Source of the DNA: Halanaerobacter jeridensis
GTDB lineage: Bacteria; Bacillota; Halanaerobiia; Halobacteroidales; Halobacteroidaceae
DNA: 64,000 nucleotides
Reading direction: 5' to 3'
Assembly (NCBI RefSeq): GCF_016908315.1
Contig: NZ_JAFBDQ010000005.1
Coordinates: 1-64,000, forward strand
The position numbers and the translations under genes were made by a program. This document shows, piece after piece, positions 1,501-22,909 of this stretch; within the stretch, counting starts at the first letter, position 1; the number at the start of each line of letters is the position of its first letter. The notes beneath the pieces were generated by a model that saw only the letters and a list, made by a program, of their open reading frames with translations, was not told the origin of the DNA and ran no database searches.

Positions 1501-1636
1501 TTCGGATAACGTCCCTGCGATTCGCGACGTCTCGCTACTGCTCCTATACTTTGCCTATTCTCCTAAATTTCATAAGTCAGTGCTTAACCCTGCACTATCC
1601 TCTAGACCTAGATGTCGCTAATCGCATGTTATATGA
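1501..1636 (-). repeat. attC-like cassette recombination site, copy 1
   Basis: Plus-strand 5' arm TTCGGATAAC-GTCCC-TGCGATT-C-GCGACGTCT; 3' arm AGATGTCGC-T-AATCGCA-T-GTTATATGA. The heptads TGCGATT and AATCGCA are perfectly complementary. About 85 nt of pyrimidine-rich loop lies between the arms. Confidence 0.8.
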
Positions 1637-2522: not shown

Positions 2523-2657
2523 TCATATAACGTCCCGCAGCTTCGCGACGTCCCATCAATGCTCTATAACCTAATCTAATGCAACCTTAATTTCATAAGT
2601 CAGTCCTAACCTCATTTATACTCTACAATTGGATGTCGCTAAGCTGCTGTTATGCGA
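2523..2657 (-). repeat. attC-like cassette recombination site, copy 2
   Basis: TCATATAAC-GTCCC-GCAGCTT-C-GCGACGTCC ... GGATGTCGC-T-AAGCTGC-T-GTTATGCGA. The heptads are complementary. The terminal pair has covaried (..GTCC/GGAT.. here versus ..GTCT/AGAT.. in the other copies). The 5' flank complements GTTATATGA of copy 1. Confidence 0.8.
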
Positions 2658-2679
2658 AGTGCTAAATCTCAGATAACAA

Positions 2680-4140: not shown

Positions 4141-4316
4141 TTTATGTCACACCTCACTATTTATAAATAAACAATCAATCAAGCGATCAATTAATTTTTT
4201 TAGTTTTTCAATACCGACAATTCAATAGTTCATAGAGCTGGAAAAAAATACAATGTCACACTTTCCTTTTCAAACTAAAAAATTGTCACTAAAATATGTA
4301 ACTAAGATTTAGCATT

Positions 4317-4453
4317 TCGCATAACGTCCCTGGGCTTCGCGACGTCTAGGCACTGCTCCTATACTTTTGCCTATGCTCCTAAATTTCATAAGTCAGTGCT
4401 GCAACCCTGCCATATCCTCTGTGCCTAGATGTCGCTAAGCCCATGTTATCTGA
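4317..4453 (-). repeat. attC-like cassette recombination site, copy 3
   Basis: TCGCATAAC-GTCCC-TGGGCTT-C-GCGACGTCT-AGGCAC ... GTGCCT-AGATGTCGC-T-AAGCCCA-T-GTTATCTGA. An extra 6-bp stem (AGGCAC/GTGCCT) is present. The flank TAGCATTTCGCATAAC complements GTTATGCGAAGTGCTA of copy 2. Confidence 0.8.
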
Positions 4454-4489
4454 CGTAGCCATTGTCGAATAAAAACTACTGTACTTACA

Positions 4490-6280
4490 TCAAAAATTTT
4501 GGTTATAATTAAGATTAGGTAAGGCAATTAAACAACTTGCTTTTTTATGATATCCATAGCGATTAAGCCCCATATTAGCAAATAAAAACACATCCTTCTT
4601 GGCTCTGGTAATCCCAACATAAAAAATGCTAAGCACTTCTTCAAATTCTTCTCTTAAAGAAGACAAAAACTGGAATTTACAACATTTATCAAACTCTTCC
4701 TTCCCTTGTTTAGCACTACACAACTTGCAAAGTCCTTTTGAAGTAGGAAATGAGTATGCTGTAACTCTAGGAATGTATACATAATCCCATTCTAATCCTT
4801 TGGCACCATGTATTGTAGTTATTGTTATCCTTTCATCAATTTCATTCATTAAATGCTTTAAAGATTCATTTTCTAACACAAAAGAAATCTTTTCAAACTT
4901 TTTATTTTTTGATATATTTTCTGCTTTAGTTTTTTGAAACAATTTTTTTAATAACCTTAACAAGGAATTATATATATACATTGTATCATCTTCATATATA
5001 TCTTCAGTAAGCAATTCCTCCATTCTATCAACAACTCTACTTAGTACACGTTTTGCAATAGATTGATTGATACCACTTTCTTCCAAAAACACATCTAAAG
5101 CTTTCTCATGAAAAGCTACATATTCTCTGTCAGTATCATTGAATAATCCATTAAAATAGGAAATAGATTGTTCTTCTAATTTTTCAATTACCTCATTAGT
5201 ACAATAACTAGCTCGACACAAAATAGATACATCATCAGAATCACTAATCTTATCTTTAATATGTTCTACAATAAACTCGGCTTCTTTATGATTGCTCTTA
5301 AAAAATTTAAAATTCATTTCAGCTTCTTTATCAAAAGAATCCATCTCACTATAATTTAAAAAGATACTACGAATATAACTGTCTAATTTTTTCATCTTTT
5401 CATTATCATCAAATCTATGATTTGTTTTGAATCTCATTTCTTCCATATTAAATTCCTCAGCCATATGGTCAAACAAATCAGGAATAGCTCCAATAAAGCC
5501 ATAAATTTTCTGAATTTTATCTCCCATTAAAATAATTTCGTTTTCTCCCATTAATTTTGTAAGCAATCTATATGATAAATAATTAGTATCTTGAAATTCA
5601 TCAACAATAATCATTTTATAATATTGCTGATAAAAATTTCTAATTGATTTCTTATTTAATAAATAATAGGAAAAAAGCAATAATCCATTAAATGTAATAA
5701 CTTCATTAGGGATTAATATTTCGTTTAAAATCTCAAAATAATTGCTTTCTAACTTTTCAACATTATCAATATTTTCTTTTTCAAACCCATTAAAATTTTT
5801 AATACATTTGTCATACTCTGATAAAATGTCCATTTCCGAAGATGATAGATAATCCTTTAGCACTGCTGAATAATCGGATACTATTCTAAAAGAATCCATA
5901 GCCCCCAAATTTTTATTTAATAAATATCCATGTTTTTTTAACAAAATTCTTGCTAAATTATGATAATTTGCTACATCAAGTTTCTTGGATAAATCAACAT
6001 TTTCATCATCTAATAATTCAGGTAATAATTCATTAGTATCTTTTTTAATTTTATTAGCTGCATTTACGCTAAATGTAAGGGCTAATATTTTTTTATGATG
6101 TATTGTCGGATCTGTAACTATTTTGTAAGCAATTTTACTAATCATTGTTTTGGTTTTCCCATATCCAGCTGGAGCAGTTACAATTATTCTTTGTTTTTGA
6201 CTGAAAATAAAATCAAGTTGCTCTTCATCTTTTCCATGAATATCCTCAATTGATTTAGAAATAGCTTTTTTATTCTTCAT
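4490..6280 (-). CDS. gajB: UvrD/PcrA-like SF1 helicase, Gabija GajB-like (596 aa)
   Basis: Walker A VTAPAGYGKTKT, motif II IIVDEFQDTN, TIHGAKGLEWDYVYIP and YVGITRAKKDVFLF. It overlaps the upstream OLD-family gene by 11 nt. Confidence 0.8.
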   Translation of the reverse strand: MKNKKAISKSIEDIHGKDEEQLDFIFSQKQRIIVTAPAGYGKTKTMISKIAYKIVTDPTIHHKKILALTFSVNAANKIKKDTNELLPELLDDENVDLSKKLDVANYHNLARILLKKHGYLLNKNLGAMDSFRIVSDYSAVLKDYLSSSEMDILSEYDKCIKNFNGFEKENIDNVEKLESNYFEILNEILIPNEVITFNGLLLFSYYLLNKKSIRNFYQQYYKMIIVDEFQDTNYLSYRLLTKLMGENEIILMGDKIQKIYGFIGAIPDLFDHMAEEFNMEEMRFKTNHRFDDNEKMKKLDSYIRSIFLNYSEMDSFDKEAEMNFKFFKSNHKEAEFIVEHIKDKISDSDDVSILCRASYCTNEVIEKLEEQSISYFNGLFNDTDREYVAFHEKALDVFLEESGINQSIAKRVLSRVVDRMEELLTEDIYEDDTMYIYNSLLRLLKKLFQKTKAENISKNKKFEKISFVLENESLKHLMNEIDERITITTIHGAKGLEWDYVYIPRVTAYSFPTSKGLCKLCSAKQGKEEFDKCCKFQFLSSLREEFEEVLSIFYVGITRAKKDVFLFANMGLNRYGYHKKASCLIALPNLNYNQNF

Positions 6281-7997
6281 TATCTTCTACTCCATTCATT
6301 AATTCTTCTATAATATCTTTAAAAACTTCAGGCACATTAGTAACATATTTTGCTAAAAGAGAACCATTTAAAGCATTTTTTTTATTCCTTAATTGTTTTA
6401 TTTCTTCTTCTTGATAATTTAGCATAATTCTATTTTTAACTTCCTCAGGAACCTCATATTCTTCAGGAGCTTCTATAAAAAGTCTGGGACTAAATTCTTC
6501 CATCTCCTTTTTTAAATAATTTATAAAAGGAGTAATTTTATCTGCTTCCTTTTGATAAAGCAAATAATCATTAAAATCAAAACTATTATATATTTCTGCT
6601 TCAAAATCTATTTCATTTGTGAAAAATATTCCATCTTCATTTTTATATTTTTCTTCTTGATCTTTATCAATTATAGCTATAGCTCTAATATCATATGCAT
6701 CATAAAGTTTCATACATCTAAGAACACTACCAGCCCCATCAAGTTTTATAATTCCAATACTTTCTTCATCAATATCATATCCTATTCTTTCAATAAGTAC
6801 TGGTAAAGCTCCGAATTCTGTATCACCTTCTACAAGAACTACAGCTTTACTAAACATAGCTTCTTTAATATACATAAAACTTCTTATTAAGTGTTTATGA
6901 GTTTTATCATTAAAATCTATATTTCTACCACACTTTACATTAACTTTATCATTAACCTTATATAATCTAGTAATTTGTTTATAGTTATTTAATAATATAT
7001 TAGGAGAATGTGTAACAACAAACACTTGTCCAATCAAACCATCTATTTCAAATAATTCTTCGAGAAGTTTGATAAAGTCTTCATTCTTATTATCAATAAT
7101 TCTTTTTATACCTTTAATTAATGCTCTTTGTCTATATGGATGTTGGTGTATTTCAGGTTCATCTAAAGCAATTACAATTGGTAAATATCTATTTCCCTCA
7201 TCATCATTAATTAAAATATTATTAAATTTTTCTTCTTTCTTATTAGTTTTTAATTTTATTAACAAATCTAAAATATATAAAAATATATTAAATGAATATT
7301 GTAAGCCATCACCAAGTTCATTTAAACTTTTACCTGTATTGTCTCCTACCTCTAAAATTCGACTAACAATATTCTGCTCATCATCATCCACAAATGCTTC
7401 AATTACTTCTCCTTTTAACCCATTTATTTTATATATTTTTTTATTTAAATCATCAACAATTTCATTAACATCACTAATATTAATTAAATCTAAATTTTCT
7501 ATATCTCTTTCCTCCAAAATGTTTTCAACTAAGTAATTTAAAACTTTTCCAGTTCCAGTGTTTTTTGAAAAATCTATTTCTTTGCTAGGATTCCTTAATG
7601 ACGAATAATAAATAAAATTGATTTTTTTAATAGTTATTGGATTTATATATGTATCTGCCGGAGATGCATGTTTATATTCAATTCGACTATAAATATCTTC
7701 TTGAGTTGCTATAATAGTTAAACTATATTCATCATCAATATCAAAATTATTTTCAAAAAAACCCAATTCATCTTTATTGTAACTTATAGTGAATTTAACA
7801 GATATCTCCTTCTTTGTATCATCAAAATGTTCTTCATAGAATTTACCCTTACGTAATAAACAATTAAGCAACTCCATTACATTAGTTTTACCAACATTAT
7901 TTTCTCCAACTAAAAAATTAATTTCCTCATCAAATTTAAAATTTAGTCCGCTTAAATTCTTGAAATTTTTTACTTCTTTTATTTCACTTACAAACAT
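6270..7997 (-). CDS. gajA: OLD-family ATPase-TOPRIM nuclease, Gabija GajA-like (575 aa)
   Basis: N-terminal ABC-like ATPase (FLVGENNVGKTNVMELL; LDEPEIHQHP) and a C-terminal TOPRIM (AVVLVEGDTEFGALPVL; IAIIDKD). It is immediately followed by the UvrD-like gene, which is the class-2 OLD/Gabija arrangement. Confidence 0.8.
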   Translation of the reverse strand: MFVSEIKEVKNFKNLSGLNFKFDEEINFLVGENNVGKTNVMELLNCLLRKGKFYEEHFDDTKKEISVKFTISYNKDELGFFENNFDIDDEYSLTIIATQEDIYSRIEYKHASPADTYINPITIKKINFIYYSSLRNPSKEIDFSKNTGTGKVLNYLVENILEERDIENLDLINISDVNEIVDDLNKKIYKINGLKGEVIEAFVDDDEQNIVSRILEVGDNTGKSLNELGDGLQYSFNIFLYILDLLIKLKTNKKEEKFNNILINDDEGNRYLPIVIALDEPEIHQHPYRQRALIKGIKRIIDNKNEDFIKLLEELFEIDGLIGQVFVVTHSPNILLNNYKQITRLYKVNDKVNVKCGRNIDFNDKTHKHLIRSFMYIKEAMFSKAVVLVEGDTEFGALPVLIERIGYDIDEESIGIIKLDGAGSVLRCMKLYDAYDIRAIAIIDKDQEEKYKNEDGIFFTNEIDFEAEIYNSFDFNDYLLYQKEADKITPFINYLKKEMEEFSPRLFIEAPEEYEVPEEVKNRIMLNYQEEEIKQLRNKKNALNGSLLAKYVTNVPEVFKDIIEELMNGVEDNEE

Positions 7998-8128
7998 TTT
8001 TTTTGCCCCCGTTTCAATTTAAGTAATTAATCTTCTAATTTAAATAAAATTAGTTCATCGATTAAAATCAAGAAAAATTATATTTGATCTTAATCTCTTT
8101 GGATAACCTCTTTTTCAAAATGGCTATG

Positions 8129-8263
8129 TCAGATAACGTCCCTGGGGTTCGCGACGTCTCGGGACTGCTCCTCTATTCTGCTCATCATCCTAAATTTCAT
8201 AAGTCAGTGCTACAACCCTGCCCTATCCTCTTACCTAGATGTCGCTAAGCTCATGTTATGTGA
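8129..8263 (-). repeat. attC-like cassette recombination site, copy 4
   Basis: TCAGATAAC-GTCCC-TGGGGTT-C-GCGACGTCT ... AGATGTCGC-T-AAGCTCA-T-GTTATGTGA. The heptads pair with one G:T and one mismatch. The flank AATGGCTATGTCAGATAAC complements GTTATCTGACGTAGCCATT of copy 3. Confidence 0.8.
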
Positions 8264-8749
8264 TGTAGTTAGCAAAAGATATTTTCTATATTCTCCAAAA
8301 CCTATGCAAACACTTCTAAACTATGCTAAACCTATTCTACTCACCTTTGCTAATGAGACTTTTCTTTCACAATCCTTCCCAAACAGCTCTAATTAGAGTT
8401 CTCTTACAACTATAATTCTATAACTTTAAAAAAAGAATAAACCGAAAGAGATAGAGTAGATATCCTTCCCTAAAATGGTTTCTAAATGTGTTTTTAACTT
8501 CACTATACTCAAAAATTTGCCTCTAAACCTGAGCATTTTCGCCGAAAAATTATACCAACGCCCAAAATATAGCCTAGGCATCGCTACTGGACTAACTTCA
8601 AACAAATATACTTCCACATAACTTATATAAGCCTTAACTCTATATTTCTTTTCCTTAATATAAAAAAGCATCTACTCTATCTCTTGACCGGTTATAGAAT
8701 TCTGCAGCATTTTCTATTCTAATACAAACAAACCCATTTGCTAACTATG

Positions 8750-8886
8750 TCACATAACGTCCCTGGGCTTCGCGACGTCTCGGGACTGCTCCTATACTTT
8801 TGCTTATCCTCATAAATTTCATAAGTCAGTGCTGCAACCCTGCCCTATCCTCTATACCTAGATGTCGCTAAGCCCATGTTATCCGA
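8750..8886 (-). repeat. attC-like cassette recombination site, copy 5
   Basis: TCACATAAC-GTCCC-TGGGCTT-C-GCGACGTCT ... AGATGTCGC-T-AAGCCCA-T-GTTATCCGA. The flank TTTGCTAACTATGTCACATAAC complements GTTATGTGATGTAGTTAGCAAA of copy 4. Confidence 0.8.
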
Positions 8887-8923
8887 CGCCCGGCTTCTAT
8901 AAAAAATATATCCCTCTTTTAAC

Positions 8924-9781
8924 CTAGTAACTTTTTAATATATCTAAATATTCACTTTTTGTTTCATTATCATATAAACCCTTCGCTTCATTTAGAGTTT
9001 CTATAGCCCAGTCTACATATTTTTGATTTACTTTTTTACTATTTTCTATTTTTTCTATAAATCTTTCTATTTTATTTCTCAATTTATTGTTTACTGATTT
9101 TAATTTTTCTTCCAATTGTTCATTCTCTTCTGCTAGTTCTTCATTCTCTTCTGCTAGTTCTTCATTCTCTTGCTCTAATTGTTCTTCAATTTCTTTTAAC
9201 ATTTCTAATCTTTGTTTTAACCGTTGTGTTTCCTTCTTTTCTTGTTGTGTTTCCTTCTTTTCTTGTTGTGTTTCCTTCTTTTCTTGTTGTGTTTCCTTCT
9301 TTTCTTGTTGTAATTTCTTATCAGACTGCTCAACTGCCTCATCTAATGCACTTAACTCTTCATCACTCCATTCAGTACTTTCCTTACTACTCTCACCTTC
9401 ATTTAATATTTCTTTTATTTTGCTTTTAACCCAACTAGGAGCTTCTATAAAATCTTTTCTCAATCTTTTATTCTCTGATTTCAACAACTCTTTATAAGCT
9501 AAATCTAAATTAGAAAGATTATCTTTAGTCAATATATCTATTTCAATTAAATTTTCTGCGAATTCTCCTGGTTTCATAAATTTATCTTCTAATTTGCTTA
9601 TTTCTTCTAATTCGTCATATAATTTAGTTTTAGCCTTATTAGTACTTAATTCAGCTTGTTTTAGTTTCTCTTCTGTTAAACCATAATCCTCATTTAACTT
9701 AGTAGTTACATCATCTGCTAAAACATTCACTGTCAAAACCAATAGCAATACAATCAATAATAAAACACTTAACTTCTTCAT
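8924..9781 (-). CDS. secreted coiled-coil protein with tandem heptapeptide repeats (285 aa)
   Basis: N-terminal signal-like segment MKKLSVLLLIVLLLVLTVNVLA. It carries a QQEKKET x4 repeat and an ELAEENE repeat, is strongly charged and looks helical. It is the sole ORF of the cassette between sites 5 and 6. Confidence 0.6.
   Translation of the reverse strand: MKKLSVLLLIVLLLVLTVNVLADDVTTKLNEDYGLTEEKLKQAELSTNKAKTKLYDELEEISKLEDKFMKPGEFAENLIEIDILTKDNLSNLDLAYKELLKSENKRLRKDFIEAPSWVKSKIKEILNEGESSKESTEWSDEELSALDEAVEQSDKKLQQEKKETQQEKKETQQEKKETQQEKKETQRLKQRLEMLKEIEEQLEQENEELAEENEELAEENEQLEEKLKSVNNKLRNKIERFIEKIENSKKVNQKYVDWAIETLNEAKGLYDNETKSEYLDILKSY
9224..9307 (-). repeat. 4 x 21-bp perfect tandem repeat inside the coiled-coil gene
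   Basis: The unit ttgtgtttccttcttttcttg is repeated four times on the plus strand and encodes QQEKKET x4. A second 21-bp unit (ttcattctcttctgctagttc) is repeated just over twice at about 9121-9170. Confidence 0.85.
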
Positions 9782-9860
9782 AATCTGCCTCCCCTAAATT
9801 ATGGTTTTTAATGTTTTTAATATGTATTTCTTTCAATAAAAATAGCAGCTAAGCCGGGTT

Positions 9861-9994
9861 TCGGATAACGTCCCTAGGGTTCGCGACGTCTAGCTAAACC
9901 CTCCTATAACTTGTCCATCCTCTAAAACTCAATATTCAATTCCTAACCTTCCCTAACCTCTCAACCTAGATGTCGCTAACCCTATGTTAGACGA
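9861..9994 (-). repeat. attC-like cassette recombination site, copy 6 (divergent loop subfamily)
   Basis: TCGGATAAC-GTCCC-TAGGGTT-C-GCGACGTCT ... AGATGTCGC-T-AACCCTA-T-GTTAGACGA. The heptads are complementary. The loop differs from copies 1-5. The flank AAGCCGGGTTTCGGATAAC complements GTTATCCGACGCCCGGCTT of copy 5. Confidence 0.8.
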
Positions 9995-10014
9995 TGTTTG
10001 CTTGATAAAAATCA

Positions 10015-11046
10015 TTACCTTCTCTCTATTTCTTCAATTATTAATTTTGGGAATTTATATTCAATTACAGCAATAGCTTCTTTTAAAAGCGGATAAGAAA
10101 AATCTCCTTTTGAACTAGTAATCATTGACATCCAATGAGTTGGATAATATCGAACTAACATACCAATCGCATATGAAATAATGTAAATAGTTAATAAAGA
10201 AGAAAAATTTAAATTATCAGCTAAAGGGGCAACAGCAAATATATTATTTTTTCTATCATTTTTTACAAACGGAACTCTATTATAAAACTCTTCATTAGAA
10301 GAATGAATTATTCTAAAAGATATATTTTCTAAATTACCTGCAAAATTATGTTTTTCCTTCTTTCTCGTTTTAATGTCTTTTGGTAAACCAAAGTCATCTC
10401 TAACTAATTCCTTATTAGGTAACCCAATACTAGTTTCTAACACTGCAATATCTGTTTGTTCAGATAAACAAAAAACAATTGCATTATAACATTTAGAATA
10501 ATCATCAAAAGTATTCTCATATATATTTTGTAATTCCGGAATCCTCGCTAATATTTCTTTAATAGTAATTAAATTATTACTATCTTCTTTACCCCCATAT
10601 TGTTTTATTTTAGTTCGATTTGGATATGGAGCTATATATATTGAACTTCTCTCAATATTTTCTGTAACCTCCCATAACTTAGAAAATGTGCCAGAAGTAA
10701 TCTCAACATTCAAATTAGGTACTTCTTCTATTCCATCTGAAAGTTTTTGGGTCCAATTTTTCACTCTTAATCCATGAGATGGTTTAAGGCTAGTTACTCT
10801 TGCAAAAGGATCTAAAAATAAAATTAATCCACGACAAAATGCAACTACTCCGTAATAAAACAATAGAGGAGATACAACATTATCAGCCTGTTTTGCACTG
10901 GAAAAATATTCTCTTCCTTGAGTAATATGAGAAACTATTTCCTCTGCTTTTCCAGCCGAAAGTTCTCTATCATGCTTCTCTTCATAAAATTTTGAAACTA
11001 AATCTTTGCTTTCATACAAAGATATCTTAGACCAAACATTTTTCAT
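10015..11046 (-). CDS. YaaC-like protein (343 aa), second gene of a two-gene cassette
   Basis: The N-terminal region ...EIVSHITQGREYFSSAKQADNVVSPLLFYYGVVAFCRGLILFLDP... resembles my recollection of the B. subtilis YaaC family. The family assignment was not verified by any search. Confidence 0.45.
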   Translation of the reverse strand: MKNVWSKISLYESKDLVSKFYEEKHDRELSAGKAEEIVSHITQGREYFSSAKQADNVVSPLLFYYGVVAFCRGLILFLDPFARVTSLKPSHGLRVKNWTQKLSDGIEEVPNLNVEITSGTFSKLWEVTENIERSSIYIAPYPNRTKIKQYGGKEDSNNLITIKEILARIPELQNIYENTFDDYSKCYNAIVFCLSEQTDIAVLETSIGLPNKELVRDDFGLPKDIKTRKKEKHNFAGNLENISFRIIHSSNEEFYNRVPFVKNDRKNNIFAVAPLADNLNFSSLLTIYIISYAIGMLVRYYPTHWMSMITSSKGDFSYPLLKEAIAVIEYKFPKLIIEEIERR

Positions 11047-11069
11047 TATTTACCTCCCTTTTTCCCTTG

Positions 11070-11528
11070 TCACAAATTTACTTTTTCTAACTGTGTAGGC
11101 CAAGCTCCTTGACCATTTCCTCCTTTAAAATAAACTCTATAATTTTTTCCTATAGAAGAAACAACATGTTTAGTAATATACTTCTTTTCTTCACCATCAA
11201 TTTCAACTTTACTTTTCTTTTTAACTTTGTCTCCAGGCTTTAAATTTAATTCTTCAATTGCTTGCTTATTATTTTCTTTTAATTTATCCTCAATTTTTGC
11301 TGAGGCAACTCTCAACGAATTGTTTTTAAGATCTAAACCCAATTCTTCTCCAAATTCAATTTGTTTTTCAGTAGACTCATTAAATTCCATATTAGGATCA
11401 ATTGCTGGTTCAACTGCATCATAAATCCTTGCACTTGCTACATTACGAGTATCATTAGAAATATCAACTTCTAATTTAATTGCTATATTCTTTTGAAATG
11501 GTGTTGGTTTTTTATGAACATCATTCAC
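11070..11528 (-). CDS. hypothetical protein with an internal duplicated ~32-aa motif (152 aa), first gene of the two-gene cassette
   Basis: The two repeats are TPFQKNIAIKLEVDISNDTRNVASARIYDAV and STEKQIEFGEELGLDLKNNSLRVASAKIEDKL. The lysine-rich C-terminal segment ends in ...YRVYFKGGNGQGAWPTQLEKV. It lies 23 nt upstream of the YaaC-like gene. Confidence 0.5.
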   Translation of the reverse strand: MNDVHKKPTPFQKNIAIKLEVDISNDTRNVASARIYDAVEPAIDPNMEFNESTEKQIEFGEELGLDLKNNSLRVASAKIEDKLKENNKQAIEELNLKPGDKVKKKSKVEIDGEEKKYITKHVVSSIGKNYRVYFKGGNGQGAWPTQLEKVNL

Positions 11529-11573
11529 AAATAAATTTCCTCCTTTAAAAAATATAATATAACAAAAGCAAAT

Positions 11574-11709
11574 GTCGTCTAACGTCCCTGGGGTTCGCGA
11601 CGTCTAGCTCAACCCTCTTATAACTTGTCCTTCCTATAAAACTTTCATATGTAATCTCTACCTTCACCCATCCTCCTAGCCTAGATGTCGCTAACCCCAT
11701 GTTATGTGA
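11574..11709 (-). repeat. attC-like cassette recombination site, copy 7 (divergent loop subfamily)
   Basis: TCGTCTAAC-GTCCC-TGGGGTT-C-GCGACGTCT ... AGATGTCGC-T-AACCCCA-T-GTTATGTGA. Its CTAAC core matches the GTTAG of copy 6 rather than its own GTTAT. Confidence 0.8.
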
Positions 11710-11845
11710 TGCTTCTGATCGGTTAATAAAAAATAATCCCCAATAAAATTAAAACCCTCATTAAAATTTAGCATAATAATAAATACTCATATCAAACAAC
11801 TATAATTCGAATTATTTTATACTAATATTATATTCAACCTTACTT

Positions 11846-12648
11846 TTACTCCTCAATTTGCAACTCAACTCCTGGTATATAAACATTAATCCTTTCTATT
11901 TTAAATCTAATTCTATTTTCTAATTCTTTTTTCACAATATCTTGAATTGTTTGCCCTACTTTATAAACTTTTTTCTAGAATCAACAATTATATTTAAGTT
12001 AACAGTAATTCTTTCACCTTGTCTTTCAATCTCAACACCTTTAGATAAATCTTTTAAACCTAATATATCCTTAAGCGCATTCAAAAAACTACCTCCATTA
12101 GTATCTACTACCCCATCTATCTCTCTAACAACTATTCCCACTAACTCTTCTATCTTGTTATATTTTTCATCTTCAATACTAATTGAATTCAATTCAATAT
12201 TATTTTCATTTCCTAATTTATATTTAGGAAATAATCTATTACTTGGATCATCTGGTTCAGTATAATCAAATTTTTTTATATTAACTTTAACCTTGTTAAC
12301 TTCAATTCCTGTTTTATGTTTCAATCTATATTTTACAGTATCTCTTATTTCTTGGGCTACTATATTACTTTGCATTTCATCTTTTATTATTGCATTAATT
12401 TCAATAATAAATCCGTCATCAATTATTCTATATTCTATTCCCTTAGATAAATTATTTATTCCTAATAATACACGAATATCATCAAAAAAACTTCCCTGCG
12501 TATCAATTACTCCATCTATTTCTCTAACAATAACCCCAATTAAAATTTTTATTACTTCTTTAGAAATCCTAATCTTTCCTTTGTTATTTTTTTGTTCAAT
12601 ATCAATATCCTTAGATTTTTTCATAATTGTTTTGCTCTCCTTTTGCAA
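11846..12648 (-). pseudogene. tandem-domain Asp23/Gls24-like protein, frameshifted in a homopolymer (first cassette next to the attI-like site)
   Basis: There are two Asp23-like halves (VIKILIGVIVREIDGVIDTQG... and IEELVGIVVREIDGVVDTNGG...). The ORF-track ORF stops at 11956, but the second domain continues in another frame (KVYKVGQTIQDIVKKELENRIRFKIERINVYIPGVELQIEE, stop at 11846-11848). The frame change is at the T6 run at 11969-11974. Confidence 0.6.
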
Positions 12649-12675
12649 TATAGATAAAAAGTTTTATAAGAAGTT

Positions 12676-12760
12676 TCACATAACTTATTTTTTAACGACA
12701 CAAAAATCATAATTTATAGTTGTTCCTTATATTTACGATGATTGTGTCGTTAAAATCAGA
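12676..12760 (-). promoter_or_regulatory. attI-like primary recombination site abutting the recombinase stop codon
   Basis: TCACATAAC at 12676-12684 complements GTTATGTGA at the right end of copy 7. An inverted pair of boxes follows: TTAACGACACA at 12692-12702 and TGTGTCGTTAA at 12743-12753. The box TGTCGTTAA matches TGTCGCTAA of the attC-like arms at 8 of 9 positions. Confidence 0.6.
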
Positions 12761-13801
12761 TTAGTTGATTAAATTATCTAACGGACTTTCTATGTTTGCA
12801 ATATCTCTTTTGCTGACATGAGTATATATTTCAGTAGTAGTAGAACTCTTATGTCCTAATAATTTTTGGATGTATCGTAAATCAGTTCCTTGCTCTAATA
12901 AATGTGTTGCAAAAGAATGTCTTAAAGTATGTACAGAAACATCTTTAGTAATATTAGCTTTTCTACAGGCTTTTTTGAATATTCTTTGTACTGATCTTGT
13001 AGTTAAGTGTTCTCCTTCTTTGCCTCCAGGAAACAACCTCTTTTCGGGTTGATATAATTGATGATACATTTTTATCTGTTTCAGACAAGATTCTGATAAG
13101 ATCGTATAGCGATCTTTTCTCCCCTTCCCTTGATTAATTTTAATTAGCATTCTATCACTATTAATATCATCCATTTTTAGTTTAACAACTTCACTAACCC
13201 TTAATCCAGCAGAATAAACTACATACAAAATTGTTTTATGTTTGGGGTTATCTAGACTATCTAAAATCTTCGCTACTTCTTTTTTACTTAATACTTCCGG
13301 TAACTTTTTTTCTTTTTGTGGTCGTGATAAAACAACTGAAATATCTTTATTATCCAATACTTCCCGGGCCAAGAACTTAATAGCACTAATCCCCTGGTTA
13401 ACAAATGAATGTGATAAATCTTGGTCTAATAAATCCAACAAATAATCCTTAATCTCAGCATCAGTCACTCGTGATAACTTCTTATTAATAAATCGTGCAA
13501 ACTGCCTAATATGACTCATATAAACTTTTTCCGTCTTTTCACTATAACCTTCTAAATTTAACTGATTTTTTAGTTCATTAATTACTAGTTCATTTTCTAA
13601 AGCACTGGAAATTATAATTCTTTCATTAACAAATTTCTCTTTTAACTGTTCTAAAATATCATAATCATAAGGTACTAACCATGCTCTAGCTTTAGGGGCC
13701 CATTCCCGCTTATTAATTTCTTTAATTTTTTTAATTTTTCTTTCCGAATAATCAAATTTAACAGCTAGTTGTCCTTCTAACTTTTCAATTCTTAATGTCA
13801 T
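12761..13801 (-). CDS. tyrosine recombinase (Xer/integrase family, 346 aa) with a ~70-aa N-terminal extension; candidate cassette integrase
   Basis: Catalytic motifs are present: AGLRVSEV, HTLRHSFATHLL and LLGHKSSTTTEIYTHV. Only about 55 aa separate GKGRKDRYTIL from HTLRHSF, so the ~100-aa spacing I recall for IntI1 and VchIntIA is absent. The N-terminus is MTLRIEKLEGQLAVKFDYSERKIKKIKEINKREWAPKARAWLVPYDY... Confidence 0.85.
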   Translation of the reverse strand: MTLRIEKLEGQLAVKFDYSERKIKKIKEINKREWAPKARAWLVPYDYDILEQLKEKFVNERIIISSALENELVINELKNQLNLEGYSEKTEKVYMSHIRQFARFINKKLSRVTDAEIKDYLLDLLDQDLSHSFVNQGISAIKFLAREVLDNKDISVVLSRPQKEKKLPEVLSKKEVAKILDSLDNPKHKTILYVVYSAGLRVSEVVKLKMDDINSDRMLIKINQGKGRKDRYTILSESCLKQIKMYHQLYQPEKRLFPGGKEGEHLTTRSVQRIFKKACRKANITKDVSVHTLRHSFATHLLEQGTDLRYIQKLLGHKSSTTTEIYTHVSKRDIANIESPLDNLIN

Positions 13802-14036
13802 AAATTAGCTCCTCTCTCGCACGCATAAAATTAAATCTAACAAAAAATAGATTTTATAACATTATAACCAAATTTAAGAGCTAATATACATTAAAATATA
13901 TTTGCAACTAGCTTTTCTTATTATATTATTGATTATATACATTTATAGCATATTCTAGTTATACTTTTATTTTTCTCCACTAAAAAATATTTTCCTGCAC
14001 ATTCATCGTTAAAATCAATTTATTCTACTTATTTTT

Positions 14037-14073
14037 ACAAAAAAATAAAAGCTATCAAAATAATTTTGATAGC
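14037..14073 (-). terminator. intrinsic terminator after the MCP remnant
   Basis: Stem GCTATCAAAA (14051-14060) with TTTTGATAGC (14064-14073). On the minus strand it is followed by a T-run (A-run at 14037-14050 on plus). Confidence 0.6.
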
Positions 14074-14154
14074 AAATTAAAGTTTATATTCTTTTTTATC
14101 TATAAACTAGGGCCAACAACAAATAAGTTACTCAATCAAAATTAATATTTATTA

Positions 14155-14820
14155 TTAAACATCATTCTTCTGAACTAATTGATTTAAACCTTCAGCTACA
14201 TCTGCTAATTGCTGAGAAGAAGCTGCAATGTCATCAGACATATGAGTTATTTCTTGTGATACATCCAAAACTTCATCACTATTTTCAGCTAAAGTTTGGG
14301 TGGAATTGTTTATAGCTTCTATTGCTGCATTTAAAGCTAATAAATTAGTCTGTTCTGCTATATTATCAATCAATTTAATTATTTTCCCAACTTCTTCAGA
14401 ATTATGATCAAGCTGATTAATCGTTTTTACTGTTTGACTTACAGAATCAGTAATGTCTTCCATACTGTCAATTGCTTTTTGAACTTTTTTGCTACCCAAC
14501 TGAACTCTCTTATTAGTTTTTTGAGCAAATTCTGCTACTTCGTTAATACTATTAGATATACCGTGTATTTTAAGTGCCATTTTTTCAATCAAAGAAGAAC
14601 TAGTTTCAATTGAGGCATTCCCTTCTTCAGCAGCAGCTGATAATTGTTGACTAGTAGCAGTAACTTCTCCAACTTTTTCTTTTATATTATTAATAATGAT
14701 ATTTAAATTCTGACTTAAATCTAAAGCTTCAGCCTGTTTTTCTTCTGCCAAATTTATTAAATGAATTGATTTATTAATTAACAAAATAGCAACAATTCCA
14801 GTGAAAATAAAAATAACCAT
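14155..14820 (-). pseudogene. methyl-accepting chemotaxis protein remnant (221 aa)
   Basis: It aligns by eye to the signalling domain of the 531-aa MCP at 37424-39019 ([17 protein letters not shown]..., [16 protein letters not shown]). It lacks the sensor region and the conserved hairpin tip ([18 protein letters not shown]...). Confidence 0.6.
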
Positions 14821-18034: not shown

Positions 18035-21000
18035 TTAATTTTTTAAACTACTACCAATCAACTTTAAATTTTCTCCAATGTTATTTAATTCATTGACCAC
18101 TTGGATTACTTTTTGCCCGTCTTGATTGGACTTTTTCTTACGGTAGATTTCTTTTATTTCCTGCCATCTTTCTTCTTTCTCTGCTGTCATCCGTCCAGTA
18201 ATTTCATGAAACTTTAACAAACTAGCTTCAGCATGAGTTGCTAAGGTCTGAGCATCATTAATATAACTATTAACTATCAACTTATCCAATTCATCTTCAT
18301 TCATAATCGGGACTACTTTTTCTACAATTTTATTCATATTCCGGTAAGACCCCTGCAGTTTAAATGGTGGTTCTGTTCTATAATCATCATTTTGCGAAGC
18401 AGATTTGATATATTCCATATTAACTCTTAGCACTTCATCTCTAATCTGGAGACAACTTTCTAATACCTTTTGGGCTTCTTCTAACTCTTCTTCAGTATAA
18501 CTACCCTGCAAATTCATTTCTTCTTGCGTCTTAGTTGTAATATCCTCTAATAGTTGATAGATATCTGTTTGATTTTTCATATAAATATTATTTAAATATT
18601 GATTAGACGTGATAGCATTTTCAATATAACTAAGTTTAAAAGCCGATTCATTTTCTCTTAACATATCACCTAAATTATAGACATCAGCCCGATTGGCTAA
18701 CATATCAGGAATCTTAAATTTATCTCCACTTTCAGTATAAGGGTTACCGCCCATTACTACAGCTACCTTTTTACCTCTAAATTGATAAGTTTTACTTTGG
18801 CCTTGATAGACACCATCTATCTTTCTCTGACCGTCGCATAAAGAGATAAACTTCTGTAAAAACTCAGGGTTAGAATGCTGGATATCATCTAAATAAATCA
18901 TCACATTATTACCAATCTCCAGGGCCAAATTCAACTTCGCGAGTTCCTCCCTCGCACTAGCATTTTCAGCTTCCGCCGGATCAAGTGAGGTTACCCCATG
19001 CCCAATTGTCGGACAATTGACTTTAACCAGCATCATACTTAAGCGGTTAGCCACATATTCCACCAAAGTCGTCTTCCCATAACCCGGCGGAGAAATCATC
19101 AACAGCATTCCCATGTTATCAGTCCGCTTATCTTTACCAGCCGTTCCAATCTGTTTAGCTAGATTATCACCAATTAACGGCAGATAAACTTTATCGATTA
19201 ATTTATTGCGGACAAAAGAAGTCAGCACACTCGGCTTTAAATCCTCAAAATTAAACCTACTTTTAAGTTCCGCAATTTTAGCAAACTTTAACTGCTGAAA
19301 CTCCTGATACTGGGGCACAATATTGTTTTTAAAATTATCTAACTTAGCTAAAAAATCCGTTAAGCTAATTTGATACTGCCCATTATCAAGCTGAGGATGA
19401 GTACCTACTAAATTATCAATCTCAATTTGCGATTCTTCATTAATTATACGCCGCTGCTCATAATCATCAACCATTAAAATAGATAATACTTCATCAACAT
19501 AATGATTAAAACTCACTTCTTCTTCATGTAAATAAGACTGCAGCCATTCACTAATTAAAATATACTTTCCTTCCAAATCATCTGCTAATTTTTCCACTGA
19601 ACTATCAAAATCACTTTTAGCACTCTTAGCAATTAGAAAATCAGCAAACTGCTGGTGGATTTCTGCTGCTTCTTTACTAATTGCAAAAGCCTCATTTTGA
19701 CTTATTTCTTTGGCTAAATATTCTGCTGTTTTGTGATACTGACTACATTTAATCCATTCATTATCTGCTGTAAATGATTTGATTTCAGCCGCTAAGATAG
19801 GGATAAAACTAGCCACTAACTCCCGCTGCGAATACTTAGCTATGACATTAACTGTTTTTAATCTCCGCTGCAACTTTTCTTTTTTCTCTGATGCTAAACC
19901 AAACTCCCAAAACAAGTTTGCTACTGCTCTAACTTGAGGACTGTAAGCTGCTAATTCTAATTCACGGTATTTCTCTACTACTGCCTTTAGTATTTTTCGT
20001 CCATCATGATCGTGAACTCCAGTGGTATAATATTCATTAGAATGCTGCTGCATATAATCTTTAATGATTTTAGTTAAAGCCTGCTCATCTTTTTGATAGA
20101 GGTTATCTAATTGATTTTGCTCCTCATATTTTTTAAAGATATTATAGGCTAAAAACTCAGCTCGGTAAACTTCTTTATTTTCAGAAATTACTTCCTGCTC
20201 CCACACCTGCTCGTAAGCACTAAATTCTTCTTGTTCAATCGCTTCCCAAAAGTCAGTACCGGAAATGTGAAAATAAAAGCCGTCATCTTTACGCATTAAA
20301 CTTAACTCAGCTTCTTGATTATTAACTAAGAAATGATGATTGCCGAGCTTAATTGTATTCTCATCTAAAAATAATTCCTGCTTATCTTTTAACTGCTTGA
20401 TACTAGTTTCCCTTAACGATTTAAGTTTGTTTTCAATATCATCTGCTTTGGTGCTCGCTCCAAGGTCAATTAATTCTGCAATAATATCTCTTATCTTATC
20501 AACCATTGGACTAGTAGATAGTAGTTCATTAATCTCTGCTACTTCATCACAAGAATGAACCCGATTCTTTAAACTTTTAAAAATTCTATCCGCCGCATTA
20601 CCTAAAGAATCAATTTTTCGATTCTTCTGTTCCATTAGCTGCTGCTTTTTAGCTTCAAAAGTAGATACTATCTCTTCTCTTTTTTCAGTCAGTAGCACTA
20701 TAAACTCATCAAATTCAGAAAATTTACTCTCTAACTCATCAATTTGGATAATAATTTTAGACATATATGATTCAGTTTTCTCAACAGTAGTTGATAGTTC
20801 TAAATAATTAGCTACAGAATGAGTTAAAAGATTTAACTTAGAATAAAACTCAGCTTCTTTCTCCTGCGCACTTAAATTATCTATTTTGTTTTTGAGCTGT
20901 GACTTGTGCTGATTTAAATTAGAGAATAACGCCGAAATTTTATCAATAATCACTGAAGTTTTAGTCGCATCTTTGATCTTTAGATTATTAACTATATTAA

Positions 21001-22909
21001 TTAACATTTCTAATTCTTCAGAGACTTTTTTTATCTTTTTATTTAATTCTTCACCATCTACTACTTTCTCAATCTCCGGTAATTTATCCTTAATTTCTTG
21101 TACTTCTTCTTGATAGGGTTTTAAACTATTCTCCTGCAGCAGGAAGTTAATACAATCTTGGGCCAAGGTCTCCTGCTTTTCCTTAATCTCTTCCGCTAAT
21201 TCCTCCACCTGCTCTTCTTCCATAAACTGCAGGTCCTTTAGCCCCGCTATTTCGCCTCTCACCTGTCTAATTTGCGTTAGATATTTGACAAAGTCATTAA
21301 TATTCTCAAAACTAGCATAGCTAATTGCTTTTGTAATCTTAGTTACTTTTTCCTTAACTTGCTGATACTGCTGCTCGGTGTTTTCCTTGATTTTGCTGAC
21401 CTTATCAAACTCTTTAATCGCAATTGCTCCTGCTTCTTTAATCTTTAGGAGAGACTCTTTAATCTTAAAAGCTTCCGGTTTATCAAGCCAGAAATAGTTA
21501 TTAATAATATTTTCGGCATCATTAACTATATCTACATACAAACCATAGTAACTGTCATCTTTTTTAGATAAATTATACAGCGAATAACAATCTGCCATGA
21601 CCCTAACTATCTGCTTATTGCCGATATTATATAGAAATTCATCACTTTTCTCTGCAGCATCAGTGCCTACTTCTTTACCAAAAGGCGTTTCCCAAATTTG
21701 GATCGTATGGTTCCGTTTCGCCTCTTGAGCGGCAGTAAAAATTATCATCTCTCCATTATCAAAATGAGTGTAGCCATTACACATAATCGGCGTCTCAATA
21801 TCTTGATGAATAATATTATAATTATGAATTGAATATTCACCAGTTACGCGGTCATAAAAAATATACTGATAGTCTTCTCCATTGAGCGAAGCCTTTTTAT
21901 TTTGAAAAACCATATTGGCATAATTTAACTGAAAACGCTTGAATTCTCCTGACTGCAGAAAAATACCGTCAGGAAAGATCAAGCCTTGGTCTTCTGGTAA
22001 TAAAACCACTGATTTACCAATCGAGTCTATGCGCTCTACTTCTTCTGTCTTTTCATTAAAGACAATATAACGATAATTCTCTTCTTGATAAGGTTTAATC
22101 TTTAGTAAAATAAAGTTACCTACTACAGCGTAAAAGATAGTTGCATCATCAAGCTTTTGGTCTTTCCGTTCTACTTCATCAGAATAAATTCCCTTCCCTG
22201 AATTTGTATTATTCTCTATTTTTAGGGTTACATCGCCATTAATAGTTTCTACAAACAAACGATCGTCAATTGAAATATGGGGATAAAGACCAGCCACCTG
22301 GTCTTCTCTTGTCGTTTCAATCCATTCAATCTCCTGTTGAGGTGGATAAGAGATCTCATGACTAAATCTATTTCCTAAGTATTCTATAGTTTGATTATCT
22401 TTAACTAACCACTTGAAACTTTTAATATCATCTACATTATCCCCGGTTTGAAAGACCATATACAGAAAACCGTTCTTTTCATAAAACTTAGCAAAAAAAC
22501 TTTCTTTATAGTATTGATACAACTCTTTAAAGTCTGCTTTAAAACTCTCATCATCCAGCAGCGTATAATCCGATTTAACAAATCTAGTCCCATTATACTG
22601 ATAAAGAGAAAAGACATCGCTTAATTTAGTTTCAGATTTTAGGCCTAAGTGCACATTATAACCTAAAATAACCTGCTCCCCAACCGAAACTATATCACGC
22701 GGTATACAACTATTTTCTGTTACAATTGCTTCACTATTCTTTAATTTATTCTTTGTTTCTCCATAGATTTCTATTCGCTTTTCTTCTAATTTAGTTAATT
22801 TTTCTTGCAATTCTTCCGCTCGTTCTACTAACCGGTTTCTAATCACATTATAAGAAGCAAAACTATCCTGTTTTTCTTCTGTTGTAGATTCTTTAGCCAC
22901 TTTAACCAC
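18035..22909 (-). CDS. giant AAA+ ATPase-domain protein (1624 aa)
   Basis: The C-terminal third contains Walker A LLMISPPGYGKTTLVEY and Walker B NVMIYLDDIQH. A long central coiled-coil and an N-terminal beta-rich region are also present. The start lies 1 nt after the stop of the flotillin-like gene. Confidence 0.75.
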   Translation of the reverse strand: MVKVAKESTTEEKQDSFASYNVIRNRLVERAEELQEKLTKLEEKRIEIYGETKNKLKNSEAIVTENSCIPRDIVSVGEQVILGYNVHLGLKSETKLSDVFSLYQYNGTRFVKSDYTLLDDESFKADFKELYQYYKESFFAKFYEKNGFLYMVFQTGDNVDDIKSFKWLVKDNQTIEYLGNRFSHEISYPPQQEIEWIETTREDQVAGLYPHISIDDRLFVETINGDVTLKIENNTNSGKGIYSDEVERKDQKLDDATIFYAVVGNFILLKIKPYQEENYRYIVFNEKTEEVERIDSIGKSVVLLPEDQGLIFPDGIFLQSGEFKRFQLNYANMVFQNKKASLNGEDYQYIFYDRVTGEYSIHNYNIIHQDIETPIMCNGYTHFDNGEMIIFTAAQEAKRNHTIQIWETPFGKEVGTDAAEKSDEFLYNIGNKQIVRVMADCYSLYNLSKKDDSYYGLYVDIVNDAENIINNYFWLDKPEAFKIKESLLKIKEAGAIAIKEFDKVSKIKENTEQQYQQVKEKVTKITKAISYASFENINDFVKYLTQIRQVRGEIAGLKDLQFMEEEQVEELAEEIKEKQETLAQDCINFLLQENSLKPYQEEVQEIKDKLPEIEKVVDGEELNKKIKKVSEELEMLINIVNNLKIKDATKTSVIIDKISALFSNLNQHKSQLKNKIDNLSAQEKEAEFYSKLNLLTHSVANYLELSTTVEKTESYMSKIIIQIDELESKFSEFDEFIVLLTEKREEIVSTFEAKKQQLMEQKNRKIDSLGNAADRIFKSLKNRVHSCDEVAEINELLSTSPMVDKIRDIIAELIDLGASTKADDIENKLKSLRETSIKQLKDKQELFLDENTIKLGNHHFLVNNQEAELSLMRKDDGFYFHISGTDFWEAIEQEEFSAYEQVWEQEVISENKEVYRAEFLAYNIFKKYEEQNQLDNLYQKDEQALTKIIKDYMQQHSNEYYTTGVHDHDGRKILKAVVEKYRELELAAYSPQVRAVANLFWEFGLASEKKEKLQRRLKTVNVIAKYSQRELVASFIPILAAEIKSFTADNEWIKCSQYHKTAEYLAKEISQNEAFAISKEAAEIHQQFADFLIAKSAKSDFDSSVEKLADDLEGKYILISEWLQSYLHEEEVSFNHYVDEVLSILMVDDYEQRRIINEESQIEIDNLVGTHPQLDNGQYQISLTDFLAKLDNFKNNIVPQYQEFQQLKFAKIAELKSRFNFEDLKPSVLTSFVRNKLIDKVYLPLIGDNLAKQIGTAGKDKRTDNMGMLLMISPPGYGKTTLVEYVANRLSMMLVKVNCPTIGHGVTSLDPAEAENASAREELAKLNLALEIGNNVMIYLDDIQHSNPEFLQKFISLCDGQRKIDGVYQGQSKTYQFRGKKVAVVMGGNPYTESGDKFKIPDMLANRADVYNLGDMLRENESAFKLSYIENAITSNQYLNNIYMKNQTDIYQLLEDITTKTQEEMNLQGSYTEEELEEAQKVLESCLQIRDEVLRVNMEYIKSASQNDDYRTEPPFKLQGSYRNMNKIVEKVVPIMNEDELDKLIVNSYINDAQTLATHAEASLLKFHEITGRMTAEKEERWQEIKEIYRKKKSNQDGQKVIQVVNELNNIGENLKLIGSSLKN

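Follow-up and report, generated by a model that had tools for sequence, protein, structure and literature searches.

A probable integron-like cassette platform with a non-IntI tyrosine recombinase in Halanaerobacter jeridensis

Organization of the locus

The window analyzed here, i.e., the whole stretch of 64,000 nucleotides (nt) from Halanaerobacter jeridensis, codes on its minus strand for a 346-residue tyrosine recombinase (12761-13801), downstream of which, and on its strand, come an attI-like site (12676-12754) and then a row of co-oriented segments that end in attC-like sites of ~133 nt, seven of which are present between positions 1503 and 11708. Taken together with homologous loci from other genera, this organization makes it quite probable that the locus is a sedentary chromosomal integron-like cassette platform run by a tyrosine recombinase other than the integron integrase, IntI. 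The evidence comes from the hairpins of the attC-like sites, the junctions between cassettes, the association of the sites with one recombinase family across genera and the placement of that family among the tyrosine recombinases.

The attC-like sites

The seven imperfect palindromes (ATAAC...GTTAT) all lie on the minus strand, at 11576-11708 (site 1, the end of cassette 1), 9862-9993 (site 2), 8751-8885 (site 3), 8130-8262 (site 4), 4318-4452 (site 5), 2524-2656 (site 6) and 1503-1635 (site 7, the last in the window, past which the array may extend beyond position 1); no further copies of the repeat are found elsewhere in the window. On the recombinase strand the repeat reads 5' ATAAC-AT-NNNN-TTAGCGAC-ATCTAG..~70 nt..CTAGAC-GTCGCGAA-N'N'N'N'-AGGGAC-GTTAT 3', with cores that fit the RYYYAAC/GTTRRRY pattern. 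Its hairpin comprises a terminal R-box stem, a conserved 4-nt bulge, a 7-bp stem, a fixed L-box mismatch and a further stem, and either strand of the sites can form such a long hairpin with about equal stability in terms of fold energy. The four variable bases of the 7-bp stem are complementary within each site: this 4-nt central spacer varies between the sites of one array, with the complementarity kept in every one of them. In an alignment of 24 attC-like sites from four genomes, 94% of the cells pair, versus 23-53% when the partners are slid by 1-3 columns, and eight pairs show compensatory double changes, values reached by none of 500 shuffles. The stems of these sites covary.

The four extra unpaired bases (the GGGA/TCCC bulge) lie on the L'-R' arm and adjoin the crossover core, whereas canonical attC sites have their extrahelical bases on the R''-L'' arm, with the crossover at R' (PMC2727003). 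The bulge on the crossover arm is a real geometric difference from canonical attC. The so-called variable loop of the sites (alignment columns ~55-70; e.g., in site 3, 8751-8885, minus strand) carries a motif, CTGACTTATGAAAT, common to Halanaerobacter, Orenia and Natroniella, which could be an accessory site for protein binding, for instance by the N-terminal domain of the recombinase.

The attI-like site, cassette junctions and polarity

The attI-like site (12676-12754, minus strand) consists of a 13-nt inverted repeat, TTTAACGACACAA (12754-12742) and TTGTGTCGTTAAA (12703-12691), a 6-7-nt spacer and the core G|TTATGTGA (12684-12676). The core positions also hold the 9-nt junction partner of the first cassette, GTTATGTGA, 77 nt past the stop of the recombinase gene; on the recombinase strand this sequence has just three occurrences in the window, of which one falls inside site 3. 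In 6/6 loci tested, the partner of the first cassette is found 77-144 nt past the recombinase stop, immediately preceded by a GTCGTTAA-type box and its spacer of 6-7 nt, i.e., with the same R-spacer-L layout as in an attC arm. Across genera the design recurs as one to three palindromic TTAACGAC/GTCGTTAA boxes, 6-7 nt and GTTA, as seen in seven loci. It is because this integrase-proximal region shares the layout of the attC 5' arm (ATAAC-N6-TTAGCGAC) that it is called attI-like here, and it would supply the G|TT crossover for the first cassette.

At the junctions, the bases after the 3' GTTA of one site are the reverse complement of those before the 5' TAAC of the next. The match extends over 9-10 nt in the window, and across four arrays it averages 8.9 nt for adjacent sites (n = 25) versus 5.4 nt for non-adjacent ones (n = 192; Mann-Whitney p = 2e-13). 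The corresponding match in canonical cassettes is 9-11 nt (PMC2727003). Such a signature is expected if the inter-site segment along with one site had once been a circle that recombined at G|TT. As the relation between the flanks is symmetric, it does not tell which of the neighboring sites belongs to the segment, and the polarity can be read from three other observations. In Natroniella, four 100%-identical segments of 1493 nt with an IS91 transposase are each followed by the same B-type site, while the sites that precede them are A, A, B and B; two DinB cassettes of Caldalkalibacillus, which are paralogous, keep their similarity on into their downstream sites; and the first segment after the attI-like site has a downstream site only. 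These settle that a cassette is made up of the open reading frame (ORF) and its downstream site, with the crossover at the 3' core on the coding strand, which in turn places the four extra bases on the L'-R' (crossover) arm.

The recombinase and its N-terminal domain

The recombinase joins an Xer/IntI-like core to an additional N-terminal domain and lacks the IntI insertion. Pfam models delimit the core-binding domain Phage_int_SAM_4 (residues 75-151, coded by 13349-13579, minus strand) and the catalytic domain Phage_integrase (residues 170-331; 12809-13294, minus strand), whose RKHRHY set, R201, K229, H291, R294, H317 and Y326, is invariant or nearly so in 30 homologues. The sequence is 100% identical to a Halanaerobacter jeridensis (Halanaerobiales, Bacillota) protein named "site-specific tyrosine recombinase/integron integrase" at NCBI. 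That name, given by the Prokaryotic Genome Annotation Pipeline (PGAP), follows from the NCBIfam model NF040815 (XerA-type), which bears the same title and is the sole model whose cut-off the protein passes (227.8 vs 220). The match covers residues 77-336 only, leaves the N-terminal domain (N-domain) uncovered and is silent on function in bacteria.

The N-domain (residues 1-64; 13610-13801, minus strand) is predicted to be a compact beta-beta-alpha-beta-beta-alpha-beta domain, with a predicted local distance difference test score (pLDDT) of 84-90. In the 30 homologues, which are 49-87% identical, the tryptophans W34 and W41 never vary and F16, Y18, P44 and F57 hardly do; the N-terminal extension is a conserved domain and not an artefact of start-codon choice. 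Its predicted fold resembles the HARP, UvsW N-terminal and XPB damage-recognition domains, i.e., it is the same three-dimensional fold. The match of the Pfam HARP model (PF07443) to it is weak and sub-threshold (15.2 bits vs a cut-off of 25; E 0.016), and the same model reaches 23.6 bits (E 3.6e-5) in a multi-domain relative. A profile of the N-domain finds 3,119 cluster representatives in 1.84 billion proteins, and 9/9 representatives checked are tyrosine recombinases with a Phage_int_SAM_4 core, several of them with three or four tandem N-domains. In canonical IntIs it is the I2 helix or domain that serves the single-strand pathway by reading folded DNA (PMC4792948); by analogy, we hypothesize that the N-domain does the structure-reading job of the I2 helix.

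Two further features of the relatives may be recorded. Many of them (proteins P0121-P0148) are tyrosine recombinases of 580-790 residues in which three or four tandem N-domains precede the same core. An N-domain homologue with 42% identity over query residues 9-344 is encoded by a Chryseobacterium plasmid (NZ_CP041688.1, 16035-17039), so that some members of the wider family are plasmid-borne.

Absence of the IntI-specific insertion and placement of the recombinase

With phmmer, the archaeal XerA (4a8e) aligns to the recombinase as one piece, whereas the alignment to VchIntIA (2a3v) is broken in two, passing from query residue 244 to 264 while the chain goes from 178 to 240, such that ~42 residues are missing from the recombinase. 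The similarity to VchIntIA is as strong as that to XerA (E 1e-39). Likewise, IntI1 uses 315 residues across query residues 73-344 (272 residues), i.e., 43 more. The spacing between the catalytic Lys and His (Lys229 to His291) is 62 residues in the recombinase, 61-64 in its family and again 62 in the N-domain homologue L017, as against 65 and 69 in the XerC and XerD of Escherichia coli and 103 in IntI1 and three environmental IntIs. The insertion that is absent here has been stated to be essential to integron function (Smyshlyaev et al.).

The recombinase stays below the cut-offs of TIGR02249 (integron integrase; 218 bits vs 265, with the match in two stretches), NF011946 (IntI1 equivalog; 144.7 vs 435) and the XerC (201.1 vs 335) and XerD (208.3 vs 330) equivalogs. 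In a neighbor-joining tree of 267 core columns with 200 bootstraps, the canonical IntIs (IntI1, L072 and L074-L076) form one clade with 100% support and the array-associated family falls outside it; E. coli XerC and XerD, along with one Staphylococcaceae sequence, form a separate clade (96%), and the array-associated recombinases of Firmicutes a third (76%). Short IS91-linked integrases without the N-domain (L090b and L007) branch elsewhere. By alignment, models and tree, the recombinase is thus not an IntI, and neither is it XerC or XerD. The deep nodes do not settle the branching order of Xer, IntI and the array-associated family, and a sister relation of the latter to IntI can therefore not be stated.

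A preliminary description of the locus, made from the DNA sequence without database searches, had anticipated much of this. The intact catalytic motifs that it saw at 12761-13801 are exactly those of the 346-residue minus-strand ORF, its SAM-like core-binding domain is the Phage_int_SAM_4 domain, and its extension of ~70 residues is the 64-residue N-domain. The lack of the IntI-specific insertion holds in the split alignment, the residue surplus of IntI1 and the Lys-His spacing alike, and its estimate of 55 versus about 100 residues agrees with the measured 62 versus 103. The checks that it proposed bear it out as well: profile searches recover Phage_integrase and miss the TIGR02249 cut-off, the phylogeny sets the enzyme apart from both the IntI and the XerC/XerD clades, the structure prediction of the extension yields the HARP/UvsW-N/XPB-like domain, and the homologues, as described below, do stand systematically beside similar hairpin arrays. 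Its label "Xer-like" is only approximate given the unsettled deep branching.

Homologous loci

When a covariance model built from the 24 attC-like sites is run on homologous loci, all of its matches lie downstream of the recombinase gene and share the strand of that gene. Of the family loci for which 1 kb or more of sequence past the gene is available, 12/12 carry sites, from Halanaerobiales, Clostridia and Bacilli, always downstream and on the same strand. Alongside the seven sites of the window (recombinase identity 100%), there are nine in a metagenome contig (L081; 87%), one in the 1.2 kb of downstream sequence of a Bacillota metagenome-assembled genome (MAG; L084; 73%), seven in Orenia (L087; 58%), six in Natroniella (L086; 57%), one in Halonatronum (L088; 56%), two to three short ones of ~78 nt in Gracilibacter (L090; 53%), at least five in Tindallia (L094; 50%; weaker matches) and at least seven in Marinisporobacter (L095; 50%). 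Direct-repeat analysis adds about nine longer sites in Caldalkalibacillus of the class Bacilli (L089; 49%) and seven of ~180 nt in L096, while L001 has a half-site at its contig end. Throughout the 12 loci the sequence of the sites differs between genomes and the layout is constant; in Caldalkalibacillus and L096, for example, the diverged sites still read ATAAC-AT...AAGAAC-GTTAT and CTAAC-AA...GAGAC-GTTAG. Outside this set, two Bacteroidales MAG contigs end in a hairpin of the same bulge geometry. Among the genome-scan matches listed, which are relatives of no more than 46% identity, the contig breaks less than 2 kb past the gene in 9/13 N-domain loci, as it also does in L097; breaks so soon after the recombinase gene are of the kind that repeat arrays cause.

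The relative at 87% identity, L081, shares the upstream synteny of the window (a DUF3686 protein and a hydrolase of the metallo-beta-lactamase fold) but has different cassettes, some of them in identical tandem copies; the array thus turns over at a fixed chromosomal site. The genes upstream of the recombinase are housekeeping genes that are syntenic between relatives. The position of the platform is marked by a gene for a 1624-residue protein with DUF3686, DUF7902 and an AAA-type motif (18035-22909, minus strand), which is syntenic with 1-4419 of L081. Two of the related arrays are of note for IS91-type genes: in Natroniella (L086, 12576-20952) genes for IS91-family Y2 transposases sit in the array as cassettes, each with its own attC-like site, and in Gracilibacter (L090, 11399-13403) a short integrase without the N-domain and a Y2 transposase come after the main recombinase.

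Cassettes and cargo

Seven cassettes and the start of an eighth can be delimited in the window, all on the minus strand. Cassette 1 (11583-12683, 1101 bp) holds an Asp23-family gene (11840-12648) with a frameshift around 11975, at or near a run of six A, beyond which the C-terminal part, GQTIQDIVKKELENRIRFKIERINVYIPGVELQIEE, continues in another frame; the gene may be either a pseudogene or the product of a sequencing error, and an in-frame stop, which had been considered, was rejected as the lesion is a frameshift. Cassette 2 (9869-11582, 1714 bp) has a 152-residue ORF and a 343-residue YaaC-like ORF. Cassette 3 (8758-9868, 1111 bp) codes for a 285-residue coiled-coil protein with a signal-peptide-like N-terminus (8924-9781), in which 21-nt tandem repeats at 9107-9327 encode QQEKKET and EENEELA heptads; the coiled-coil-like product would be secreted. 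Cassette 4 (8137-8757, 621 bp) has an 81-residue ORF, and related cassettes of 623 bp are duplicated in L081. Cassette 5 (4325-8136, 3812 bp) carries a complete Gabija defense system, GajA at 6270-7997 (E 6e-158) and GajB at 4490-6280 (E 1e-178), and at 3.8 kb is far larger than a typical integron cassette. Cassette 6 (2531-4324, 1794 bp) has a 486-residue ORF with no family match, and cassette 7 (1510-2530, 1021 bp) has no ORF of 30 residues or more on the cassette strand. Of cassette 8 only the start is in the window (1-1509), its terminal site being outside; it has a 193-residue ORF with a COMM-like domain (674-1255). No phage, conjugation or IS91 genes are present in the window array, and no Y2_Tnp domain among its cassette ORFs.

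The related arrays carry Shedu (SduA_C), PD-(D/E)XK and nSTAND NTPase proteins, ParE, acetyltransferases, an aminoglycoside phosphotransferase and DinB. The cargo of sedentary chromosomal integrons is similar (bioRxiv 10.1101/2024.07.02.601686).

The GC skew of the plus strand is negative over nearly the whole window (1-64000), and nearly all genes lie on the minus strand. Under the usual rule for leading strands, the plus strand, which is presumed to be the bottom strand of the sites, would be the leading-strand template; 25/30 sedentary chromosomal integrons have that orientation (PMC5371416).

Interpretation and alternative readings

If the locus is an integron-like platform, it might work as follows. 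The layout would comprise the recombinase gene, a double-stranded attI-like site on the same strand (at least one TTAACGAC/GTCGTTAA box, then a spacer of 6-7 nt and G|TTAT) and the row of cassettes, each an ORF segment that carries downstream a ~133-nt attC-like site of its own. Either of the two strands of a site, but just one, would fold such that the R box (ATAAC/GTTAT), the 6-nt central region and the L box (TTAGCGAC/GTCGCGAA) mimic a duplex core site, with polarity probably marked by the four conserved extruded bases beside the crossover core and by the conserved L-box mismatch. The recombinase would bind the folded site, with its HARP/UvsW-like N-domain filling the role of the IntI I2 in reading folded or bulged DNA, and swap one strand at G|TT with attI or another attC. 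Replication would then resolve the intermediate, such that circular cassettes enter at attI and are excised or shuffled between sites. The cassettes are co-oriented with the recombinase gene, and their expression is probably by transcription entering from the end of that gene. The preliminary description had suggested cassette capture on a different branch of the tyrosine recombinases. The non-IntI enzyme, the systematic arrays and the junctions uphold this idea as far as the branch and the cassettes are concerned; that the enzyme itself moves them is what we infer from the junction signatures and the turnover of the arrays.

Several observations weigh against the integron-like reading. The equal fold energies of the two strands mean that the reactive one cannot be told apart. 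No LexA (Cheo) box was found upstream of the recombinase, and promoter-like sites are at shuffle level (22 vs 17.6 +/- 4.7 expected). Halonatronum has a single site only, and no array is present at N-domain homologues of ~40% identity from Bacteroidota and Spirochaetota (L006, L013, L017 and L019, with full 10-kb flanks), so that the N-domain by itself does not predict an array. Finally, the case is one of sequence comparison throughout, and expression of the recombinase, its binding to the sites and its catalysis are suppositions.

The alternative that survives best, though it is unlikely, retains the same platform and has it recombine in double-stranded form: the ~133-nt repeat would be two inverted dif-like cores that move as pdif modules do, with both strands exchanged. 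Each arm is indeed laid out as a duplex core site would be (R box, 6 nt, L box), an arrangement that the attI-like site shows in plain duplex, and the enzyme is without I2, the domain on which the single-strand pathway of canonical IntIs relies (PMC4792948); Xer-flanked resistance modules, moreover, exist (PMC7399989). Against this, the central spacers differ within an array, which would block a homology-dependent second strand exchange, and they covary between the arms of each site, for which only intramolecular pairing offers an explanation; the conserved 4-nt bulge and the fixed mismatches likewise create an asymmetry of the arms that a duplex site does not need.

Less probable still is coincidence, i.e., that the repeats are unrelated structured elements, such as terminators, repetitive extragenic palindromes or miniature inverted-repeat elements (REP/MITE-like), or non-coding RNAs, and that the recombinase is an ordinary Xer or the remnant of a mobile element nearby by chance. 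The sites do follow ORFs, as terminators would, and the best NCBIfam match above a cut-off is to the Xer-type NF040815 (227.8 vs 220). Yet no T-tract follows the stems, the one terminator-like match in 11500-14200 lies upstream of the recombinase gene, and no Rfam family matches the sites at E up to 1. Chance proximity sits poorly with 12/12 loci from different orders in which the site sequence diverges along with the recombinase, with sites that, within the 64 kb, are confined to the region downstream of the gene, and with a junction signature, an attI partner and boxes common to attI and attC; an ordinary Xer is at odds with XerC and XerD model scores far under their cut-offs.

There is hardly any probability that the locus is a canonical integron with a degenerate or inactive IntI whose additional domain has been lost or shortened. 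The equal similarity of the enzyme to VchIntIA and XerA (E 1e-39), a C-terminal SPLD motif that it shares with the IntIs and attC cores that fit RYYYAAC/GTTRRRY would be in keeping with such an origin, but the spacing of 61-64 residues is family-wide, which argues against a one-off deletion, and the family stands outside the fully supported IntI clade with a conserved extra domain instead. The bulge, too, is on the arm opposite to that of the canonical extrahelical bases (PMC2727003), and arrays that turn over between close relatives do not belong to a dead system. Equally improbable is an integrase of a prophage, an integrative and conjugative element (ICE) or an IS91-associated element with the downstream genes as its cargo, for, although Natroniella and Gracilibacter do have IS91-type Y2 transposase genes downstream, accompanied in Gracilibacter by a second, short integrase, the window array is free of phage, conjugation and IS91 genes, the upstream genes are syntenic housekeeping genes, the IS91 genes of Natroniella are cassettes in their own right between attC-like sites, and the IS91-linked integrases L090b and L007, which are short, have no N-domain and sit on other branches. 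Four readings, namely canonical IntI, XerC/XerD, an integrase of a prophage, ICE or IS91 element, and coincidental repeats, were weighed and rejected.

A possible second integron-type lineage

Integrons are the model of on-demand gene capture and a main vehicle of antibiotic resistance, and the field defines them by the IntI-specific domain. That definition leads to its conclusion that Firmicutes are essentially without integrons: in this phylum, Cury et al. 2016 detected not one complete integron and IntegronFinder 2.0 a single one, in Limnochorda, which fits the remark in the preliminary description that canonical integrons are described mainly outside low-GC Gram-positives. Cury et al. 2016 also noted non-IntI recombinases near attC as rare, with fewer than three sites each, and concluded that these are not integron integrases.

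The balance tips slightly in favor of a broader claim, namely a second, separate integron-type lineage, in which an Xer/IntI-like recombinase that never had I2 reads attC-like hairpins via the N-domain (in 1-4 copies; ~3,000 clusters), widespread in Firmicutes (Halanaerobiales, Clostridia and Bacilli) and probably present in some Bacteroidota. Such a lineage would be missed by standard integron finders because they require the IntI-specific domain and canonical attC geometry. No description of this recombinase family or system was found in the searchable literature, which leaves out most subscription journals, so that an earlier account may exist.

Were the claim true, the second lineage would largely explain the "missing integrons" of Gram-positives and bring cassette capture to a major phylum with many anaerobes and spore-formers among its members. 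The I2 domain would then not be the sole way to recombine folded hairpin sites, and the lineage would be a natural comparator for the co-evolution of attC hairpins and I2, bearing directly on what Escudero et al. (PMC4792948) describe as a "chicken-and-egg" problem. It would also imply a reservoir of cassettes, including the defense systems Gabija and Shedu, that is unindexed by current tools, and offer a new pair of recombinase and site, governed by other structural rules, with which synthetic shuffling of cassettes could be set up in Gram-positive hosts.

Comparison with known systems

The N-domain finds its counterparts in the HARP, UvsW-N and XPB damage-recognition modules, which are devoted to structure-specific DNA binding; these are borne on a helicase or translocase, whereas the N-domain is borne on a tyrosine recombinase, and its sequence similarity to them is under the family thresholds.

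XerC/XerD resolvases act at a single dif near the replication terminus, usually as a pair, unlike the present context of an array of seven sites and an attI-like site. On CTX phage DNA (PMC3442271), Xer-type enzymes without I2 recombine single-stranded DNA, in its folded form, with a duplex site, and the process is completed by replication; to that extent there is a parallel, with no I2 and one strand pair exchanged between hairpin and duplex. That case, however, is the integration of a single phage at dif by the host Xer pair, with no dedicated enzyme, attI or array. The pdif modules of Acinetobacter plasmids, which are bounded by Xer-type sites and thought to be mobile by site-specific recombination (PMC7399989), resemble the cassettes as gene modules bordered by recombinase sites; they differ in having 28-bp duplex sites served by the host XerC/D, no hairpin covariation and no dedicated recombinase beside an attI. 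IS91 elements with a tyrosine recombinase have a related core of the Phage_int_SAM_4 type, and such pairs occur inside the arrays (L090, 11399-13403), but their integrases, of ~276 residues, are without the N-domain, stand beside a Y2 transposase and fall on a separate branch.

Inverted-integrase integrons are found in Treponema, other Spirochaetes and some Chlorobi and Cyanobacteria. They have the integrase gene upstream of and co-oriented with the array, as here, but their integrases are bona fide IntIs with the additional domain. The same arrangement is seen in an Eisenbacteria MAG (L076, 10001-19709), where a canonical IntI (Lys-His spacing of 103 residues) has six same-strand TAAC...GTTA hairpins downstream; this has the look of an ordinary integron whose integrase is co-oriented.

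Canonical integrons, such as those of class 1 and the sedentary chromosomal ones of Vibrio, share with the present locus a recombinase gene, an adjacent attI with G|TT and co-oriented, mostly single-gene cassettes that each terminate in an imperfect palindrome, whose cores are AAC/GTT and whose pairing continues for 9-10 nt past them; in both, sites resemble one another more inside an array than from one array to another, cassettes are duplicated and turned over, the cargo includes defense and toxin genes, and the location is chromosomal and syntenic. The present recombinase differs in lacking I2 (62 vs 103 residues), in scoring under the IntI cut-off, in falling outside the IntI clade and in having a HARP/UvsW-like N-domain. 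The sites differ in their 4-nt bulge on the L'-R' arm, as against single extrahelical bases on the R''-L'' arm, and in a loop motif conserved across genera; to these may be added the co-orientation of the recombinase gene with the cassettes and the Firmicutes hosts. As read from its sequence, then, the platform would work as an integron in function and layout, with an attI and a cassette array, while departing from the integron as presently defined by having no IntI-specific domain, by staying under the cut-off of the IntI model and outside the IntI clade, and by where its extrahelical bases lie.

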